From NCBI GenBank assembly GCA_048882325.1, contig JBHLRS010000007.1, forward strand, positions 32,001 through 96,000: a DNA stretch of 64,000 nucleotides, given 5' to 3'. Below the pieces are notes generated by a model. That model worked only from the letters and a program-made list of their open reading frames with translations. It did not search any database and was not told the DNA's origin. Below are positions 25,039 through 36,343 of the stretch, one piece after another. The stretch comes from Candidatus Thorarchaeota archaeon. GTDB taxonomy: Archaea; Asgardarchaeota; Thorarchaeia; Thorarchaeales; Thorarchaeaceae. Made by a program: the position numbers and the translations under genes. Position 1 is the stretch's first letter. The number at the start of each line of letters is the position of its first letter.

Positions 25039-25761
25039 ATGTCAGAAGAAGGACCGAGTGATCTTGACAAAGTCTTCAAGGCACTAGGAAATGAAACTCG
25101 CAGAAGAATACTTCGCCTCCTAGCACAGGGTGAAAGATATCCCTATGAGTTAAGCAAAGTCCTAGGATTAACCCCACGGGGTGTATTCAAACACCTTGAA
25201 GCTCTTCAAGAAGCAGGACTCGTTGAGCGACAGCATGGCGAAAGCGAGGTAGGCCCAGACAGGGTTTACTACCGACTCAATGTGAGGTTTGGGCTTTCCA
25301 CCACAATCCTTCCAAATGCATTTGTTGTAAGACTAACTAGTCATGGGATAACAGGTCACCGACTCATAGTACCTCAGGGCTTTATCATCCCAGAAGCAAG
25401 ACCTGACGTAGCGGCGGTAAGAAAACTCCTGCGTGAGCTAGGGAAGGTCAACAGGCAACTTGAGAAACTCGAAGATGACAGGATGCGTTTTGCCTCACTA
25501 AGGAGTCAGATAATCAGCAGAATAGAGGCAGTAATGGAGCATGCTGAGTGGGATGAGGAGAGTCGTCAGAAAGTAAGGTCTCTAATTGATCCTATCCGGC
25601 AGCAAGTAGATGACACTGTAGAGGAACGCGAAGATGCTTGGGCTAGCACCGTCCAAGAAGCACTGAAACTTTTCGAGAATATGCTCACGGGGAAACCTCC
25701 GATTGCAAAGAAGAAAGAAGATTCTGACGACGATGTAGAGATAATACTGGATTCTGAGTGA
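25039..25761 (+). CDS. ArsR-type winged-helix regulator with coiled coil (archaeal Phr/HSR1-like architecture)
   Basis: VFKALGNETRRRILRLL..YPYELSK..KHLEALQEAGLV..GPDRVYY; leucine-rich coiled coil follows. Confidence 0.85.
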   Translation: MSEEGPSDLDKVFKALGNETRRRILRLLAQGERYPYELSKVLGLTPRGVFKHLEALQEAGLVERQHGESEVGPDRVYYRLNVRFGLSTTILPNAFVVRLTSHGITGHRLIVPQGFIIPEARPDVAAVRKLLRELGKVNRQLEKLEDDRMRFASLRSQIISRIEAVMEHAEWDEESRQKVRSLIDPIRQQVDDTVEEREDAWASTVQEALKLFENMLTGKPPIAKKKEDSDDDVEIILDSE

Positions 25762-25762
25762 G

Positions 25763-26458
25763 CTACCAATTCCAGATTATTTTCCAGTCCGCTCTCTTTT
25801 GGCTTGACATACTCGGCACGTATTCAATCGGATTATATGGTAGTTCCACACCTTTTGCTTTCTTCACAGATAGATAGTGTTTTCCACGTGATGTGGTGAG
25901 AGTTATGATGCCTTGAGCGAGTGAATATAATTGGTTGATGGTTACTTCGTCAGCTGTTTCAGCATGTACGAGGTAGAACTCGTTTGACCCAATTTTGATG
26001 CTCTCCTCAACGCACTCTTTGAAGAACTGAACAACATCACGGGCTGAAAAGTCAATCAGAAGTGGTGTTAGACCTTCAAATGTGATTAGATTGGGCATCA
26101 GATCTTTTCTGAGACTTCTAAGTTGAATGTTAATTTCATGTAGATGTGGCGAACAGGTGTATTCTCCTAGAGTTTCTTGACCGTATCCAACCTCCATTAT
26201 CTTGAAGCCATTACCCTGCATCTGCGAAAGTTCAGTCATGAGAGAGCGATTTCTAGCCTCCGTGACTACTTCCAATGTAGAAAGACCAAGCTCAATGGCT
26301 CGTCTGATGAGAGTGAGCATAAAGAGGTCATAATGGCTGTCCTGAGAGGCCATAACGAGGAAGACATAACCTTTCGGAGGTCTAGTGAGTAGATTGTCCA
26401 CTATGCTGAACTTTGAACCGTTCTGGTCAATTGGTTCGCTACGCACTTTTTTACACAC
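25763..26458 (-). CDS. KaiC/RAD55-like pseudo-ATPase (Walker A lost)
   Basis: Aligns by eye to 30267-31022: VDNLLTRPPKGYVFLVMASQDSHYD (no GxxxxGK), ITFEGLTPL (Walker B-like), LAQGIITL...LSVKKAKG. Confidence 0.7.
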   Translation of the reverse strand: MCKKVRSEPIDQNGSKFSIVDNLLTRPPKGYVFLVMASQDSHYDLFMLTLIRRAIELGLSTLEVVTEARNRSLMTELSQMQGNGFKIMEVGYGQETLGEYTCSPHLHEINIQLRSLRKDLMPNLITFEGLTPLLIDFSARDVVQFFKECVEESIKIGSNEFYLVHAETADEVTINQLYSLAQGIITLTTSRGKHYLSVKKAKGVELPYNPIEYVPSMSSQKRADWKIIWNW

Positions 26459-26462
26459 TCAC

Positions 26463-26846
26463 TCATTGACTCATTCCAAGATGTTTTCTAATGGTTGCTA
26501 CGAGTGCCTTACCTGAAAATGGCTTGATGATATACTCGTCAGCACCCGCTTCTTCTCCTCGTTCTACATCGCTACTCAGTCCTTTAGCAGTGAACAATAG
26601 AATAGGAGTATCTTTGAAAGTAGCATTCTCTTTGAGTCTCTTGCAGACTTCAAAGCCATCGATAGTTGGAAGCATCACATCAAGAAGAACCAAATCAGGA
26701 ACCTCCTGATTTGCAAGTTCAAGTGCTTCCTCACCATCACTTGCTACCACCACCTCGAATCCGTGCTTCTCAAGGAATGTCTTCGCTAATTCAGTAGTCA
26801 TCTGTTCATCATCGACGACCAGTATTTTCTTGCTATTGCTGTTCAT
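26463..26846 (-). CDS. Stand-alone response-regulator receiver (CheY-like), canonical
   Basis: ILVVDDE, LVLLDVMLP, FTAKG, YIIKPF; likely start ATG 26846 after GGTGA. Confidence 0.93.
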   Translation of the reverse strand: MNSNSKKILVVDDEQMTTELAKTFLEKHGFEVVVASDGEEALELANQEVPDLVLLDVMLPTIDGFEVCKRLKENATFKDTPILLFTAKGLSSDVERGEEAGADEYIIKPFSGKALVATIRKHLGMSQ

Positions 26847-26980
26847 GTTTATCACCGGAGGTAGGTGTGTTTTCGTAGTACTGATGAAGATCATATGAAA
26901 GGCGGTTCCTGGTGTAAAAAAGATGAGACTTCTTCAGCGACCCGGAACGCCTGTTATCTTGTGACTTCATCATTTTATCC

Positions 26981-28363
26981 TCATACAATTGGTACTAAAT
27001 CATAATCCAGAAAGCCCTTAGATAGCAAGGGCCTTACTGCAAGGTAGTTTGTACGTGGATTTACACCACATACACTTAGCACTCCACTCAATTCCTGAAC
27101 ACGAAGATGTACACTGTATGCGATTGACCCACTTTTCAATGCCTGCTGCTGTCCAAGAATACTCACAGTTGCCCGGTTTGTCGCTGGCAGGGATGCTGTT
27201 ATTTCAGCCATCATACCTTTGACATCAGTGACACCATACTTGTTTTCAAGAGTATCAAGGGAGAATAACTCAGTTGCTTCAGCGTCAAATTTGCGCTCGA
27301 GCTGTGTAGCCTCATATCTAATCTCTTGGAGCGTCTTCCATGGATCGTCATTTATGGTCCGTACATTTTCTAGCTGTCCTAGAGCATGTCGCCCAAAGAA
27401 AATGACTTGATCCTCGACAAGCTGCTGTTCAACAAAATGACTCAACCCTTGGGAAAATTGATCCGGAGACCATCCTTCTGGGAGAAGTATAACCGCAGGC
27501 CGACCAAGTTGAAGGTGGTTCGATAGAAATGGGATGTAGATTGTTTCAAGATAAGGCGCTGCTAGATTCTCAACCTCTATGAGGCTCAATACACCTTTTT
27601 GAAAACCTCCCCCAATTATTCCATCTAAGCTTTTATTCCCAGTTGATATTCTATCAGGTGAAGGATCTTGAATTGGTTCTCTCTCCACTGTGATTGGTGG
27701 GAACTGATGCACATGCCAGGGTACGTATGTGAATCTACCGTTGTTTAGTGTGAAGAGGAAAGTGTCTTGTTTCAGTGGTAGTGAGCGCATCTTCTCAATA
27801 GTCATTTGTCGATACATTCTCTGATCTTCACGTAGTTTCTTCAGGCGGATGATTGCATCAGCTGAGTGGTGCAGAGGGTGTTGATATTTCTCTTCCCAGT
27901 CACCTTCTGTTACAAGTACTAACTTTTTACCCTCGTTTCGGGCTGCGTAAATCAACGACTGTTGAACTTCATATCTTTTGGCTTCATCAATAGGCATCAT
28001 GAAGTCGGTCCAAGAGTCGATAATTACCACGTTGTGTGATTCTGATACAGACTGCACACCGAGTAATTGCTTCAATTGCTCATGCAAAGGAACTTCATGC
28101 AAAGAACTCTCTTTCAGAGACCTCCAGTAATGAGAAACGAAATACCGCTTAGACCAATTAGGTTCCATAGATAGGCCCTTTTCCGTTACAGATGTTGATT
28201 CAGCGTTAGACATTATGAGTAAAGATTCGTTAAATTCTCGAAAGACCTCATGTACAAACAAAGTCTTGCCTGTTCCAGGCTTTCCTGTCACTACAATAAT
28301 ATAGCCAGGTGCTGAGTCTAATGCATCCCTAATACTAGGCGGAATCGAGCCTTCACTGCTCAT
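26981..28363 (-). CDS. GvpD-like double RecA/KaiC-domain protein (N-terminal domain intact, C-terminal domain degenerate)
   Basis: GKPGTGKT, VIIDSW, ADAIIRL, IEKMRS; second domain ISTGNKSLDGIIGGGFQKG lacks Walker A; likely start 28363. Confidence 0.8.
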   Translation of the reverse strand: MSSEGSIPPSIRDALDSAPGYIIVVTGKPGTGKTLFVHEVFREFNESLLIMSNAESTSVTEKGLSMEPNWSKRYFVSHYWRSLKESSLHEVPLHEQLKQLLGVQSVSESHNVVIIDSWTDFMMPIDEAKRYEVQQSLIYAARNEGKKLVLVTEGDWEEKYQHPLHHSADAIIRLKKLREDQRMYRQMTIEKMRSLPLKQDTFLFTLNNGRFTYVPWHVHQFPPITVEREPIQDPSPDRISTGNKSLDGIIGGGFQKGVLSLIEVENLAAPYLETIYIPFLSNHLQLGRPAVILLPEGWSPDQFSQGLSHFVEQQLVEDQVIFFGRHALGQLENVRTINDDPWKTLQEIRYEATQLERKFDAEATELFSLDTLENKYGVTDVKGMMAEITASLPATNRATVSILGQQQALKSGSIAYSVHLRVQELSGVLSVCGVNPRTNYLAVRPLLSKGFLDYDLVPIV

Positions 28364-28474
28364 TTCTGATTGCCCCTTGCTTGCGCAAATGGAGTTCACT
28401 TGTTTTGAAATATAAGGATATGTGGCTCATTTATTCTAATCACTCTTGTGATAATTCAAGAGCAACTCGAGGGT

Positions 28475-30070
28475 TTACTCTTCAAGCTTTGAAATGAAGT
28501 CCTTGAAATACGGGCATAAACCCCCCATCCAATAGAGGTTTCCAAAGCACTCTTTTCGAAGTCCCAATCGCTCAACTCTGCACTCGAAGCTCTTCTCTCC
28601 ATCAAAGAAAACGCAGAGGTCACTATCTGACTTCGGGTCATCAAGGACCATTCTTCTTACTTCTTTCATTCTATTAAGTTCAGGAGAGTCTGACCATTCC
28701 TTGCTAGGACCCAGTTGTTTGCGAATGTGTGCTAGAAGTTTTTCATCGGGAGTCCTACCATCAGCCCAAAGTGTGACTAACTCACTGACATCTGCATTGA
28801 AACCATAGAGGAGATGATCAATATCTACTGAAACTTCTTTTGCTCTCCTGTATGCTGCTATTGCATCGTCATATCTCTGTAAAATGTAGTTTGCATCGCC
28901 TGCAAGAAACAGTGTGAGAGTCAATGTTGACCTCATTCCTGCTCCTTCTGCAAGTTGGGTAGCTTCATCGTAGAGCCTAATTGCTTCTTCAGTGTCACCT
29001 TTGCGAAGAGCAACATCACCAAGATTGACTGTGGCAGTGGCTATACCTCGCATGTATTCAGCTTCTTGACTGATTTCCAAAGCCCGTCGATTGTAAGTTT
29101 CCATCTGAGATATTTGGTCGAGGGCTCTGTCAATCTCCCCGACATTGATGAGCGTTGCGGCAAGTCCGACTTGATTGTTGAGTTGCTGTTGAATAATAAG
29201 CAATTCCTCGAACTGGTCTCGTGCCTCTTGGAGTCTACCCATGTTGAGGTGGATGACGCCTCGAAGTCGGCGGGCATCTGCAACACCTTGAAGATAACCC
29301 ATCCGCTCATAAGTCCGGAGAGCACTTGTTACTAGACTCAGAGCACGATCATGTTCGTAAAATTCCTCAAGTGCACGACCCCGATAAAATTTGATGTCTG
29401 TCAAAGCCAACTGATGATCAAGATGAGTAGCAGTATCCTGAGCTGAATCAAGCCTAATCAAAGCCTCCTCTCGAGATTCACCTGAAACCGAGATGAATGC
29501 AAGGATAATCCTCGGTCGTAGAAGAGCAGCTTGGACCATGTTACGGATGTTTGTATCCTTTGCAGTAGCTTGAGTGACTTTCTCAATGCTTTCAGACGCC
29601 ACCTCCCTAGCGTGATCTGTGTAGCCTAAATCAATCAGAACAGATGCTAATTGACCAGAAAGCTCTGCAAATGCAATGTAGTCTCTTGACTGCCAAGTCT
29701 GATTTGTTATGTTTCGGAGATTGTTCAACCAACGAGGATCAAGACTTTGTCTACAATATGCTGCAGCTGCATAACCCCTCGCAGTTAGGTTTGATTGGTC
29801 TTTAGCAAGGATCTGGTTGTATCCATACATACCCCTGAGAAAACTTGCTTTCGCACACATCGCGAGAAATGATGGAGTTCTATTCTTCCATTCACCACTT
29901 CCAACATATTCAATCAAAACATCCGTAAAGAGCATGAAACGGTCTTTGGTGGAACGAGATTGCATTCTGAGTCGATTACGTAGTTCATCAACCTCAGTAT
30001 CCTCTAATCCTGGTGTGTACATCATGAACTCTGGGATTACTGGATCGTCTTGCACTTTCTCATTCACCAT
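28475..30070 (-). CDS. TPR-repeat protein with C-terminal 4-Cys module
   Basis: Repeats such as GVADARRLRGVIHLNMGRLQEARDQFEE and GLAATLINVGEID; tail C-x10-C-x10-C-x10-C. Confidence 0.85.
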   Translation of the reverse strand: MVNEKVQDDPVIPEFMMYTPGLEDTEVDELRNRLRMQSRSTKDRFMLFTDVLIEYVGSGEWKNRTPSFLAMCAKASFLRGMYGYNQILAKDQSNLTARGYAAAAYCRQSLDPRWLNNLRNITNQTWQSRDYIAFAELSGQLASVLIDLGYTDHAREVASESIEKVTQATAKDTNIRNMVQAALLRPRIILAFISVSGESREEALIRLDSAQDTATHLDHQLALTDIKFYRGRALEEFYEHDRALSLVTSALRTYERMGYLQGVADARRLRGVIHLNMGRLQEARDQFEELLIIQQQLNNQVGLAATLINVGEIDRALDQISQMETYNRRALEISQEAEYMRGIATATVNLGDVALRKGDTEEAIRLYDEATQLAEGAGMRSTLTLTLFLAGDANYILQRYDDAIAAYRRAKEVSVDIDHLLYGFNADVSELVTLWADGRTPDEKLLAHIRKQLGPSKEWSDSPELNRMKEVRRMVLDDPKSDSDLCVFFDGEKSFECRVERLGLRKECFGNLYWMGGLCPYFKDFISKLEE

Positions 30071-30266
30071 TGTCTGGTGAGCCTGCTAGTTTCTGCTCCT
30101 CTATCGCTTCGCTGTCTATGGCTATCAAAAGGCTTCTAGTGGTTTTCTCCGCGAAGATGTGTGAAAGCAGAAATATAGGTTTCGAGGATGTATAGCGAGA
30201 ATATAATCGGGCGGTTCTTTCTTAAAAGTTAAAACGGGCAGTGGTATGAAATGGCTTGTGGTTCGC

Positions 30267-31022
30267 ATGCCTAAGACCCGAGTTAGTACAGGTGTCCCTG
30301 GTCTTGACGAGCTTCTAGAAGGGGGCTATGTTCAAGGAAGATCAACACTCCTAGCAGGAGGTCCAGGTACAGGAAAAAGTATCCTTACGTGGCATTTTCT
30401 GTTTGATGGTGTTGAGAAAGGCGAGAGTGGTTTATTGGTGTCCCTCGACCAGACAGCAGATATGATCGTTGAGGATATGTCTGATTTTGGATGGAACGCG
30501 AAGAAAAGGCTTGAATCTGGATCTTTAACTATACTTAGCGGCTCGCTTAATCTGGTTCCAACAGAGAAAAGCTACGAATATGTGATTGACTTTCATCATC
30601 CACTACTACGAGAGCAACCATTTACAGTTCCTAGATTAGCTGAACTCGTCCGAAAGAAAGCAGGAGAGGTAAACGCAAAAAGGATTGTTATTGATGGGTT
30701 GGGACCCCTACTAGAACTAGCTGGTAATCGTTCTGAGATACGTCAACTGGTGTATGGTTTCATCCGTGAGATTGTCGATTGGGAATCGACGATTATTCTG
30801 ACACATGAACTGAAAGCCAGTGAAACTGCCCAAAATGATGAGATGCCTTTCTTCATTTGCGATGGAGTTGTTGTTCTCAAAATGCTCTATACTGCAGGAG
30901 ATTATGTGCGAACGATTCGAGTAGTAAAAATGAGGGGTGCAAATCATGTCATGCGCCCGATTATGTTCAAGATTGGTCCAAATGGCATAGTAGCCTTCCC
31001 AGATGCACGTCTACCCGAATAG
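30267..31022 (+). CDS. Single-domain KaiC/RAD55-like ATPase
   Basis: VSTGVPGLDELLEGG, GPGTGKS, RIVIDG, CDGVVVL, RTIRVVKMRG. Confidence 0.92.
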   Translation: MPKTRVSTGVPGLDELLEGGYVQGRSTLLAGGPGTGKSILTWHFLFDGVEKGESGLLVSLDQTADMIVEDMSDFGWNAKKRLESGSLTILSGSLNLVPTEKSYEYVIDFHHPLLREQPFTVPRLAELVRKKAGEVNAKRIVIDGLGPLLELAGNRSEIRQLVYGFIREIVDWESTIILTHELKASETAQNDEMPFFICDGVVVLKMLYTAGDYVRTIRVVKMRGANHVMRPIMFKIGPNGIVAFPDARLPE

Positions 31023-31029
31023 ACTATGA

Positions 31030-31407
31030 TCAGTAAACTGGTTGCACCTTTCTCACTGTGTCAGTCATGTCATACATGCTGAATGGTTTTTGAAGAAACG
31101 CCCTAGCTCCCACAGCAAGGACAGTTTCACCCACACCATCTATCGGGTCTGATATTACCACTATAGCAATGATGGGGTCAATGTCAAGAATATCCTCTAT
31201 CAATCGCACTAGGTCCTTCTGGTCCATGTTGAAGTCGATAAGAACGACAGCTGGATTTTGATATTGACTCATGACTAACAGAGTCTGAGCGTCATCCGCC
31301 TCACCAATAACATCGAAACCTGCATCTTCAAGTGCCATTTTCAGAAGAACCCTGAGAAGCGGAACCTCCCCTGCAACTATAATACCAGAATGAGGAACTT
31401 CTGTCAG
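31030..31407 (-). CDS. Stand-alone receiver domain, atypical acidic pocket, probable CTG start
   Basis: The ORF track starts at 31338, but the frame is open to CTG 31407, adding the first beta strand (GIIVAGE instead of ILIVDD). VVLIDFNM, VISD and FLQKPF are retained. Confidence 0.75.
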   Translation of the reverse strand: MTEVPHSGIIVAGEVPLLRVLLKMALEDAGFDVIGEADDAQTLLVMSQYQNPAVVLIDFNMDQKDLVRLIEDILDIDPIIAIVVISDPIDGVGETVLAVGARAFLQKPFSMYDMTDTVRKVQPVY

Positions 31408-31445
31408 GTTAGTCCTGCCCCCTAGGATTTGATATTAAGACAGCT

Positions 31446-31808
31446 TCAGTCAGACACAGCACTCTCTACAAGGTCTAGCATATGACGTATTGTCACAGGC
31501 TTTAAACCAAAACTTGCAGCACCATTTCCCATTGCCTGCTCCCTCACGTTTGCATCAGCACTGATGAAAACTATCTTGGCCTTGGGATCAATATCAAGTA
31601 TCTCTTTCATGGTCTGCATGCCATCTTTGTTAGGCATTCTATGGTCTAGAATAATGACCTCAGGTTTAGGATCCAGAGCAACGAACTTGTCAACTGCTTC
31701 TGCGCCATCGTAGGCATCAGCCACAACCTCATGCCCCTTGATGCTGAAGACATCTTTGTAGAGCCTGTGAAGAATCGCCTCATCATCTACTATGAAGATT
31801 GTGACCAT
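31446..31808 (-). CDS. Stand-alone response-regulator receiver, canonical
   Basis: IFIVDDE, IILDHRMP, FISAD, LKPV; likely start ATG 31808. Confidence 0.92.
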   Translation of the reverse strand: MVTIFIVDDEAILHRLYKDVFSIKGHEVVADAYDGAEAVDKFVALDPKPEVIILDHRMPNKDGMQTMKEILDIDPKAKIVFISADANVREQAMGNGAASFGLKPVTIRHMLDLVESAVSD

Positions 31809-31919
31809 ATGCTTCTTCCAACCTTGGAATACTGTCATGCTCAGAACACAGAGAATGTCAATAAACGTTGGTTAGACGGCTATTGGTGTGCGACACTACT
31901 CTCTGTCCCTTACGACTGA

Positions 31920-35140: not shown

Positions 35141-36343
35141 ATGACCGTTGATACTGAAGTTATCATTATAGGTGCTGGACCCGCGGGTCTCATTGCAGCC
35201 CGTCGACTAGAAGAGTTAGAGATCTCCTACACTCTCCTAAGCCGAGACACCTCTCCGGGAATCAACAAAGCATGCGGAGGTTACGTTCCAAGTCGTGCAC
35301 TGAAGGAGTTCAGCCTTCAGGGCATGCCAGGTGCATACCCTATTGAAACCATTCGGATGAAGTTTCCAGGACTTGCGTTGAAGGAAATCAAATTTGACAA
35401 TCCAGTCGGAGTAAACATTAGTAGAGAGAATCTTGGAAAGGCACTGCTCGAGAAAGTTACCCAAGAGAGTGGTGAAATTTGGCTCGATACAGAAAGCAAT
35501 TTTGTAGAAACTACAAAGGACTTAGTCATCATCCATTATACTAAGGATGATGTCAGAGATACCCTCTCCTGCAGGTTACTAATTGATGCCAGTGGTGCCA
35601 ATCCTGCGAGTCAGAGGACATTAATTGTGCGCCAGAGACCTCCAAACGACCAATTGGGCTACGCAGTTCAGTATCAAATGAAATGTGAAGACACATTACC
35701 AGGTGCGAATGACTTCTACTACGGGAGTGAGTTTTCACCAAGGGGCTACGCGTGGAATTTTCCAAGAAAAAAAGAAACAGTTGTAGGAACAGGTGGGATT
35801 GTGAACAAAGTTCGAGAAAGTAGTCGGAGGGTCATAGAATATCTCGACAATCTTGTCAATGATGTTGAACCTATCAGAACGGAGTTACAGGATGTTGGTG
35901 CAGCGGTTATAAGGAAAGAAGCCGCTCTCATGCCGTTGGCAGGCATTGTTAGCCCCTCTTTCGGACGCCGTATTCTCTTGGCTGGCGACGCAGCTTGTCA
36001 TTGTTCACCCATCTCTGGGGAAGGAATTCACTATTCCATGTTGGGAGGTCTCAAAGCAGCGGATGTTGCCGCGGGATGTGTGAAGAATAAAGACTACTCA
36101 GACAAAGCACTCTCCAAATATGAGAGCTTGTGGACCAAAGCATTTGGATCAGACTTGAAGTGGGGGCTCTGGCTTCAGAAGAGATTTCTTGATTCAGGGT
36201 CAAGCTCGATGGGTTCCACATTTCTTCGTTCAGAAAAGTCTACTCGTGTAATCGCAGAAATGCTAGCAGGGGTTCGTTCAGTGAGGAGTGCTATTCTTGC
36301 GGCTGCACCAGGCTATTTGATTTCGAAAATCAGGCGATCTTGA
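35141..36343 (+). CDS. Geranylgeranyl reductase family flavoprotein
   Basis: IIGAGPAG, KACGG, PRGYAWNFP, LAGDAA..SPISGEGI. Confidence 0.9.
   Translation: MTVDTEVIIIGAGPAGLIAARRLEELEISYTLLSRDTSPGINKACGGYVPSRALKEFSLQGMPGAYPIETIRMKFPGLALKEIKFDNPVGVNISRENLGKALLEKVTQESGEIWLDTESNFVETTKDLVIIHYTKDDVRDTLSCRLLIDASGANPASQRTLIVRQRPPNDQLGYAVQYQMKCEDTLPGANDFYYGSEFSPRGYAWNFPRKKETVVGTGGIVNKVRESSRRVIEYLDNLVNDVEPIRTELQDVGAAVIRKEAALMPLAGIVSPSFGRRILLAGDAACHCSPISGEGIHYSMLGGLKAADVAAGCVKNKDYSDKALSKYESLWTKAFGSDLKWGLWLQKRFLDSGSSSMGSTFLRSEKSTRVIAEMLAGVRSVRSAILAAAPGYLISKIRRS

Follow-up and report, generated by a model that had tools for sequence, protein, structure and literature searches.

The ATPases of the KaiC family, together with inactivated KaiC domains (iKaiC), have been proposed as signalling hubs of archaea (PMC5847659), a proposal made for archaeal KaiC-like proteins by Makarova, Galperin and Koonin in 2017 (mBio), as cited in PMC5847659. 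The archaeal domain fusions catalogued so far include iKaiC-REC, REC-DUF835 (DUF835 being an iKaiC), MEDS-REC and TPR-REC proteins (PMC5847659), and a Haloferax screen for mutants with a weakened response to a quorum signal gave hits in cirA, which is KaiC-like, and in a two-component regulator (PMC13464002). Few archaeal regulators have expanded as much as the KaiC-like ATPases or are as poorly understood, and the hub idea rests almost wholly on gene neighbourhoods. Here we describe one such neighbourhood in a stretch of 64,000 nucleotides from a Candidatus Thorarchaeota archaeon (assembly GCA_048882325.1, contig JBHLRS010000007.1, positions 32,001 to 96,000), which we call the window and by whose own numbering coordinates are given unless another contig or locus is named. 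The subject is a cluster of seven genes, g1 to g7, that encode three KaiC-fold proteins (g1, g3 and g5, here the trio), three receiver-type proteins (g2, g6 and g7) and a tetratricopeptide repeat (TPR) protein with a C-terminal four-cysteine module (TPR-Cys4, g4), next to a regulator gene, g0. We put at about one in two the probability that this locus encodes a signalling module of two tiers, peculiar to one Thorarchaeota family. Its first tier would be a near-constant core of the TPR-Cys4 scaffold g4, the phosphorylatable receiver g7 and the pseudo-receiver g6; its second tier, optional and all-or-none, would consist of g3, g5 and g1 with a receiver of their own, g2.

The likeness to the archaeal KaiC hubs lies in expanded KaiC ATPases and inactivated KaiC domains being encoded beside signalling domains. 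Unlike in those hubs, the parts are here separate genes in a fixed eight-gene order that includes a family-specific TPR-Cys4 scaffold and a pseudo-receiver, and the KaiC part is a defined trio, dispensable as a block. The seven open reading frames occupy positions 25763-31838 in three transcription units, namely g4-g3-g2-g1 on the minus strand, whose genes are 75, 86 and 4 nucleotides apart, g5 on the plus strand, which diverges from g4 across 175 nucleotides, and g7-g6 on the minus strand, convergent on g5. Domains were assigned by searching the reading frames with Pfam and NCBIfam profiles. A preliminary description of the window had listed the same seven contiguous genes, and these searches agree with the domains given there; its range began correctly at 25763 and stopped at 31808, short of the end at 31838. 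The clustering of these genes is not chance, given that 3 of the 10 receiver domains of the genome and 2 of its 7 Pfam KaiC matches lie within these 6 kb, along with g1, which Pfam misses, and given a gene order that is family-wide: g0-g1-g2-g3-g4/g5/g6-g7 is kept in all seven same-genus loci and in all five loci from other genera of the same family in GTDB, with protein identities down to 37-70%.

The argument for two tiers comes from 68 loci of this one family, in which each gene was scored by tblastn and called absent only where its flanking genes were on the contig. All three trio genes are intact in 21 loci, cleanly absent from 16 and represented only by remnants in 5, and one further locus (G002a) has two intact members and a frameshifted g5; intact and cleanly absent members are mixed in none (0 loci). 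The remaining loci were left unjudged for the full trio, at least one gene position lying off the contig or without its flanking genes. Remnants consist of 72 residues of g3 with two stops in one locus (G017), of g1 and g5 fragments in two (G008 and G391) and of g1 fragments in another two (G365 and G360). The trio genes are interleaved with the retained g2 and g4, and KaiC-less genomes of the window's genus carry a reduced cluster, g7-g6-g4-g2-g0, at the same syntenic place; neither g1 nor g3 was found elsewhere in these KaiC-less genomes. The simplest reading of three genes that are not neighbours and yet are only ever lost as a set is that they make up a single machine or an obligate chain. 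Such joint inheritance or loss fits a single unit, as expected of the mixed assembly of active and inactive KaiC folds put forward in the preliminary description.

On a maximum-likelihood tree of g4 we count 13 changes between the full and the KaiC-less state, at least 9 of which are forced by well-supported branches, and 5 changes fall within the window's genus. A tree in which the KaiC-less loci of this genus form one clade is rejected (delta log-likelihood 400, p = 5e-11 in the approximately unbiased test), the KaiC-less group used for the test having been named after the tree was seen. Pseudogene remnants and gaps of differing size point to repeated loss of the trio rather than repeated gain. 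What results is a natural deletion series, at least nine lineages having lost the three KaiC-fold genes, and just those, with the scaffold and two receivers left in place, and it predicts one machine (g1, g3 and g5, with g2) as against a part that would work alone (g4, g6 and g7).

Two sites in this series are worth recording separately. In genus g29 the place of g3 holds a geranylgeranyl-reductase-like flavin adenine dinucleotide (FAD) gene (L066 7655-8893 in G394, and likewise in G396 and G398), which is unrelated to g3 and a paralogue of the gene at 35141-36343 of the window; the deletion site has been refilled. On contig C166 of the G002 bin (L017 12116-12861) g5 is split into two frames at one point, which makes it either a frameshifted pseudogene or a product of misassembly; contig C150 of this bin carries another, divergent full cluster, so that two strains are probably mixed in the bin.

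The counterpart of the optional trio is a set of genes that hardly ever leaves. In every judgeable locus except one, g4, g6 and g7 are kept. The exception, G346, is a single-contig genome (L080, G346:C1:237800-250300) in which g6 and g7 are missing and g4 is without its first 58 residues, and the whole system may be decaying there. Since g7 is kept without the trio, it is independent of the trio; moreover, g7, g6 and the TPR protein are still there in at least 16 KaiC-less loci, with the phospho-residues of g7 invariant, so the trio cannot set g7 phosphorylation, contrary to what had been supposed. Read from these patterns, g4, g6 and g7 are a predicted autonomous core, which reverses the earlier hierarchy of a KaiC hub with the TPR protein as its adaptor. 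The receiver g2 behaves differently from this core: no locus that has the trio is without it, and among KaiC-less loci it is absent or truncated in 11 judgeable ones and retained with intact phospho-residues in 12. Where they are retained, KaiC-less loci included, the phospho-acceptor residues of both g2 and g7 are invariant. Faster evolution of g2 after loss of the trio was considered and dropped as a g2-specific effect, with a residual of -6.3 identity points for g2 (10 of 12 negative) and of -3.0 for g7.

These patterns bear directly on how the receivers might be phosphorylated. KaiC-family proteins can autophosphorylate. It might be, then, that the locus is a kinase-less phosphorelay, in which a mixed ring of KaiC folds would phosphorylate or dephosphorylate all three receivers by a KaiC-type activity with the TPR protein as adaptor, and this idea draws on that general ability as well as on three features of the locus: the 64 kb contain no histidine kinase; g2 is tightly linked to the trio, lying 4 nucleotides from g1 and never being lost while the trio is present; and His178 of g3, three residues before a conserved Asp, is found in 24 of 29 orthologues (the others having Tyr or Arg). 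We nevertheless consider such a relay unlikely. The persistence of g7, g6 and the TPR protein in KaiC-less loci speaks against it, g6 lacks the Mg-binding acidic pair and is on that account an unlikely substrate for phosphorylation, and the genome encodes about twice as many kinases as receiver domains. The two histidines at the KaiC phosphosite positions of g3 are not conserved as a pair either, His177 occurring in only 7 of the 29 orthologues, and a histidine autokinase based on this His-His pair is rejected as stated. A relay of this kind could still operate for g2 alone.

Kinases are in fact plentiful, only not nearby. In the 64-kb window there is no HATPase_c domain, the nearest on the contig lying about 21.7 kb beyond the window end, and no histidine kinase stands beside the receivers as the adjacent kinase of a classical two-component system would. 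Counted over the whole genome, there are 23 HATPase_c matches, about 20 of them in histidine kinases, and 9 HisKA matches and 10 receiver domains; half of these receiver domains (5 of 10) lie in short frames of 134-157 aa, the size of a stand-alone receiver, and 3 of those 5 are in the cluster. The term kinase-less, used in the preliminary description, thus suits the locus and the window and fails for the genome. An excess of kinases over receivers recurs in all 28 genomes of the genus. Kinase counts that track the trio were also considered and rejected, kinases being found in full and KaiC-less genus genomes alike with no evident dependence. With kinases outnumbering receivers about 2 to 1, the receivers of the cluster are plausible sinks for orphan kinases.

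We therefore return to the two-tier module and suggest how it might work. The trio would work as a single assembly driven by ATP, whether as a hetero-oligomer or as an obligate chain, with g2 as its phospho-switch partner. Both g2 and g7 would receive phosphate from histidine kinases with genes in other parts of the genome, some of the 20 or so counted there, and the receivers would act through protein contacts on the TPR scaffold and on the KaiC assembly, so that the KaiC tier would tune the output of the core and not stand in for a kinase. For the output one might think of a transcription factor, for example the neighbouring ArsR-type g0, since GvpD acts on GvpE in a comparable way, and this is the weakest step of the proposal. 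The idea of a kinase-less hub can now be reduced to concrete experiments on binding and phosphotransfer.

Several points weigh against the two-tier reading. The flanking genes for a LysE transporter, a DUF389 protein and a geranylgeranyl reductase, which have no evident link to the cluster, are as syntenic as it is, so conservation of gene order alone is weak evidence and it is the co-loss pattern that carries the argument. Most of the genomes are metagenome bins with 2-9% contamination, and a gene was scored as present or absent by running tblastn against single contigs. The tree is that of a single gene, g4, and comes from a quick search; if full and reduced alleles have recombined, its count of events may be too high. 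Neither g2 nor g7 can be matched with a specific kinase, the regulator g0 is not adjacent to the cluster in genus g25 and is hence no fixed part of the module, and g5 is without the canonical Glu-Glu pair of catalytic residues, which makes its predicted hydrolytic activity uncertain. The syntenic flanks also suit a quite different explanation, namely that the genes are neighbours without shared function and the KaiC-fold members are repair ATPases of the RadA-paralogue type, or housekeeping ATPases, that lie by chance among receiver and TPR genes where the chromosome is stable. Among the PDB sequences matched by g3 and g5 is SSO2452, a Sulfolobus KaiC-like RadA paralogue, and this too lends that explanation some colour. 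We regard it as decidedly improbable, because the three genes have vanished together at least 9 times and the genes between them have stayed, because g2 follows the trio, because other Asgard families place a similar trio among GTPases, Roadblock proteins and transcription factors and not among repair genes, and because fusions of a receiver to an inactive KaiC exist elsewhere (PMC5847659).

The three KaiC-fold proteins are of distinct kinds. The smallest, g1 (25763-26458, minus strand, 231 aa), has no match in Pfam or NCBIfam; a profile of 19 sequences returned only noise against the PDB sequences, and hhalign aligns g1 with g5 at a probability of only 2.7%. Its AlphaFold2 model has a predicted local distance difference test score (pLDDT) of 86 and a predicted template modelling score of 0.85, and the top Foldseek matches of the model are PH0284, the KaiC CI domain and FlaH, with E about 1e-10. 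At the position of the P-loop (Walker A) stands ASQDSHYD, kept in 25 orthologues, and Walker B has Glu in place of its Asp. From these fold matches and the altered P-loop, g1 is on its model an inactivated, and so presumably catalytically dead, single-domain KaiC fold (iKaiC), a relationship that only the fold search settles, as sequence profiles detect none. Within the trio it is also the best conserved protein (its 25 orthologues share 70 invariant columns out of 231, at a mean pairwise identity of 70.6%), and such strong conservation would fit a subunit with several binding partners.

The second protein, g3 (26981-28399, minus strand), is a two-domain GvpD/KaiC-like ATPase (Pfam KaiC 1.3e-10, GvpD_P-loop 3.3e-8) that aligns with cyanobacterial KaiC over CI, the linker and the start of CII. 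Its N-terminal domain retains Walker A, Walker B and one catalytic Glu (Glu67, in 28 of 29 orthologues), and its C-terminal domain has a degenerate P-loop, the conserved pseudo-P-loop EVENLAAPYLET. The third, g5 (30246-31022, plus strand), is a single-domain KaiC-like ATPase that scores 175.3 bits against Pfam KaiC (PF06745, cut-off 26.6 bits, 1.7e-51). Its Walker A motif GGPGTGK[ST] and Walker B Asp150 are invariant in 26 orthologues, and its Lys/Arg finger region and His234 are invariant as well. Asp68-Gln69 of g5 aligns to the catalytic Glu77-Glu78 of KaiC CI; Asp68 is invariant, and position 69 is Gln in 22 of 26 orthologues and Glu in the other 4. The earlier assignment of g1 as a KaiC pseudo-ATPase and of g3 as a protein with one intact and one degenerate ATPase domain is thereby upheld, and that of g5 as an intact KaiC-like ATPase holds for the family and the Walker motifs and not for the catalytic glutamates.

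Pseudo-receiver domains are parts of KaiA and CikA in the cyanobacterial clock. The locus resembles KaiABC in the two-domain KaiC architecture of g3 and in having receiver and pseudo-receiver domains in one pathway, and a weak KaiB-like gene adjoins two other KaiC paralogues elsewhere in the genome. One could imagine from this that the trio is a KaiC-based timer or hourglass whose phase is read through the receivers, as that of KaiABC is through SasA, CikA and RpaA. We find this very hard to sustain. The second domain of g3 is the counterpart of the phosphorylating CII and has lost its P-loop, the locus contains no KaiA or KaiB, g5 lacks Glu-Glu, no SasA-like kinase is adjacent, and the pseudo-receiver g6 belongs to the KaiC-independent core; the organisms come from sediment-type metagenomes, and nothing in the data bears on timekeeping. 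With EVENLAAPYLET in place of its second P-loop, and with the sole KaiB-like match both weak and on another contig, g3 does not qualify as a circadian KaiC. That match reaches 27.3 bits, at the Pfam cut-off, in a 114-aa frame (G000 contig C32:13936-15638) directly adjoining the two other KaiC paralogues (245 and 270 aa), and these frames are possibly a KaiB-KaiC module elsewhere in the genome.

A further described system is the GvpD-GvpE pair of the haloarchaeal gas-vesicle clusters. Its likeness to the present locus consists of the GvpD P-loop match of g3 (PF07088, 34.1 bits against a 24-bit cut-off) and of a KaiC-family ATPase encoded near a transcription regulator. Unlike GvpD, g3 has a second, dead KaiC domain and is without a match to the GvpD basic region (no Pfam match to GvpD_bR2 at E up to 0.01). 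Gas-vesicle and GvpE genes were not detected in the genome, the control genomes for the gas-vesicle search having given none either, and no archaellin was found in the genome. The regulator beside our cluster is g0 (25039-25761, plus strand, 240 aa), an ArsR-type winged-helix protein (Pfam HTH_5 1.1e-11, HTH_20 3.4e-10) that is convergent on g1 and adjoins the cluster in the full and reduced loci of most genera. It is a candidate output of the cluster, and its membership in the system is uncertain.

Beyond the family, a g1 profile finds one strong relative in the sister family, in addition to strong relatives throughout the family itself, and weaker ones in other Asgard families; the named sources of g1 relatives are Candidatus Thorarchaeota, except for one Promethearchaeota. 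In a closed genome of another family (L092 and L026; G149:C1:3322000-3347000) one strand carries a Rag-like GTPase and a TackOD1-AsnC regulator; there follow on the other strand the genes of a GvpD-like ATPase of two domains, the second with a dead P-loop, of a single KaiC and of a Ras-family GTPase, and after these comes a convergent g1-like dead KaiC. In other Asgard families (L027, L028 and L035) the g1-like gene lies beside GTPases of the Ras, Arf or Rag type, and a g5-like KaiC also adjoins it in L026/L092, L027 and L035. Roadblock/LC7 and TackOD1 proteins are encoded near the out-of-family g1-like genes, two of the TackOD1 proteins being fused to an AsnC-type helix-turn-helix (HTH) domain, and some Asgard relatives of g3 do have a match to the GvpD basic region.

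These Asgard clusters thus have the same three kinds of KaiC fold (a half-dead two-domain protein, a single-domain protein and a dead relative of g1) and differ from the Thorarchaeota locus in their partners, which are Ras/Arf/Rag GTPases, Roadblock/LC7 and TackOD1-HTH proteins. No receiver was found in 16 out-of-family loci with a hidden Markov model built from g2 and g7, which found all receivers in the positive controls, and no TPR-Cys4 protein in the out-of-family loci examined. We accordingly reject the generalisation that receivers always stand beside the trio in Asgard archaea, and the gene order, proposed earlier as a point to check, is conserved across the Thorarchaeota family and gives way in the out-of-family loci examined to arrangements with GTPase partners and no receivers. 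A similar trio in other Asgard families implies that such a trio is older than the Thorarchaeota cluster and has been coupled to different switch proteins by lineage. This leads us to offer, tentatively and as something clearly less probable than the two-tier module itself, the view that the trio may be an ancient and portable ATP-driven unit of Asgard signal processing, which would dock on the switch that each lineage has of its own, be it receivers with a TPR protein or Ras/Arf/Rag GTPases with Roadblock proteins. If this were true, the trio would be a physical bridge from two-component signalling of the prokaryotic type to GTPase signalling of the eukaryotic type, and the otherwise partnerless small GTPases of Asgard archaea would gain a testable effector. 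In the literature searched, we found no paper that links KaiC to Asgard GTPases.

Nor did the literature searched yield either the eight-gene architecture or the all-or-none behaviour of the trio. What is new here is that architecture, the TPR-Cys4 scaffold, the family-wide pseudo-receiver and the all-or-none trio; the theme of a KaiC hub is itself known, so that the preliminary description, which had called the system undescribed, was right about the specific architecture and not about the theme, fusions of iKaiC, receiver and TPR domains having been catalogued (PMC5847659). The exchange of receivers for GTPases of the Ras/Rag type as partners of a similar trio in other Asgard families bears on how signalling was organised in the archaeal relatives of eukaryotes.

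The scaffold of the core, g4 (28475-30070, minus strand), heads the g4-g3-g2-g1 run, and the region between it and the divergent g5 (30071-30245) is presumed, from a reading of its sequence, to hold the promoters. The protein consists of a TPR solenoid, recognised by Pfam TPR families and spanning residues 13-436 of an AlphaFold2 model with a pLDDT of 91.6, and of a C-terminal module (28475-28625) of the form C-x10-C-x10-C-x10-C, whose four Cys, like Arg498 and Trp514, do not vary among 67 orthologues. We find g4 in 71 of 86 family genomes (21 of the 23 high-quality ones), and its Cys4 module in 69 of 85, as compared to one weak match among 314 other genomes sampled from the phylum. An all-helical TPR protein paired with stand-alone receivers recalls the Rap-Spo0F pairs (RRNPP) of Bacillus and its phages, in which the TPR protein, a Rap phosphatase, binds the stand-alone receiver Spo0F and governs it. 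Structural matches of the g4 model include RapF (4i9c) and the Rap of phage phi3T (8rsu, 8rtc), at template modelling scores of 0.62-0.66 normalised to the target. The match is to a generic TPR fold only, g4 being longer than Rap and having the Cys4 module; its structural matches are generic TPR proteins, and LGN and APC subunits outscore the Rap proteins. The Rap likeness may thus serve as an analogy for how g4 could work, and not as a family assignment.

Two of the three receiver-type proteins are canonical stand-alone receivers. The first of these, g2 (26463-26894, minus strand; Response_reg 4.4e-31), ends 4 nucleotides upstream of g1, and its true start may be an internal Met, residue 17. 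Its DD, D, T and K residues are invariant in 36 orthologues, and those of g7 (31446-31838, minus strand; Response_reg 6e-19), namely DD, D, S and K, are invariant in 53, so both are predicted to be phosphorylatable. The most conserved protein of the cluster is g7 (mean pairwise identity 78.5%, invariant columns 50 of 130), and it remains strongly constrained where the KaiC genes are all gone. Its gene and g6 make up an operon, with a G-rich ribosome-binding motif in the 38-nucleotide spacer between them, and 1 kb of non-coding DNA lies upstream of g7.

The third, g6 (31030-31407, minus strand, 125 aa; Response_reg plus a conserved upstream peptide), had been counted as one more stand-alone receiver and is here classed as a pseudo-receiver, lacking the Mg-binding acidic pair across the family. 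Its strand beta1 reads IIVAGE instead of xxDDx, the acidic-pair site is Ala-Gly in the family orthologues with Gly-Gly, Ala-Cys, Ala-Asn and Ala-Ser as variants, and the equivalents of Asp57, Ser and Lys are kept. This strand comes to light only in the longer form of the gene. Called from ATG, g6 has 102 aa, is without beta1 and matches Pfam from profile position 17 onwards, whereas the match of the whole open frame covers profile positions 1-110; the in-frame peptide upstream of the ATG, ...HSG(V/I)IVAGE(V/I)PLLRVLLK, is conserved across the family. At codon column 23 upstream of the ATG, 19 genus genomes have CTG (13), TTG (4), ATG (1) or GTG (1), a GGGGG-type motif precedes this column, and in 4 genomes an in-frame stop lies two codons upstream of it. 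From this start-codon signature g6 appears to begin at a CTG (31405-31407, minus strand), that is at position 31407, 69 nucleotides upstream of the ATG. Gene callers limited to ATG, GTG and TTG shorten g6 by 23 residues.

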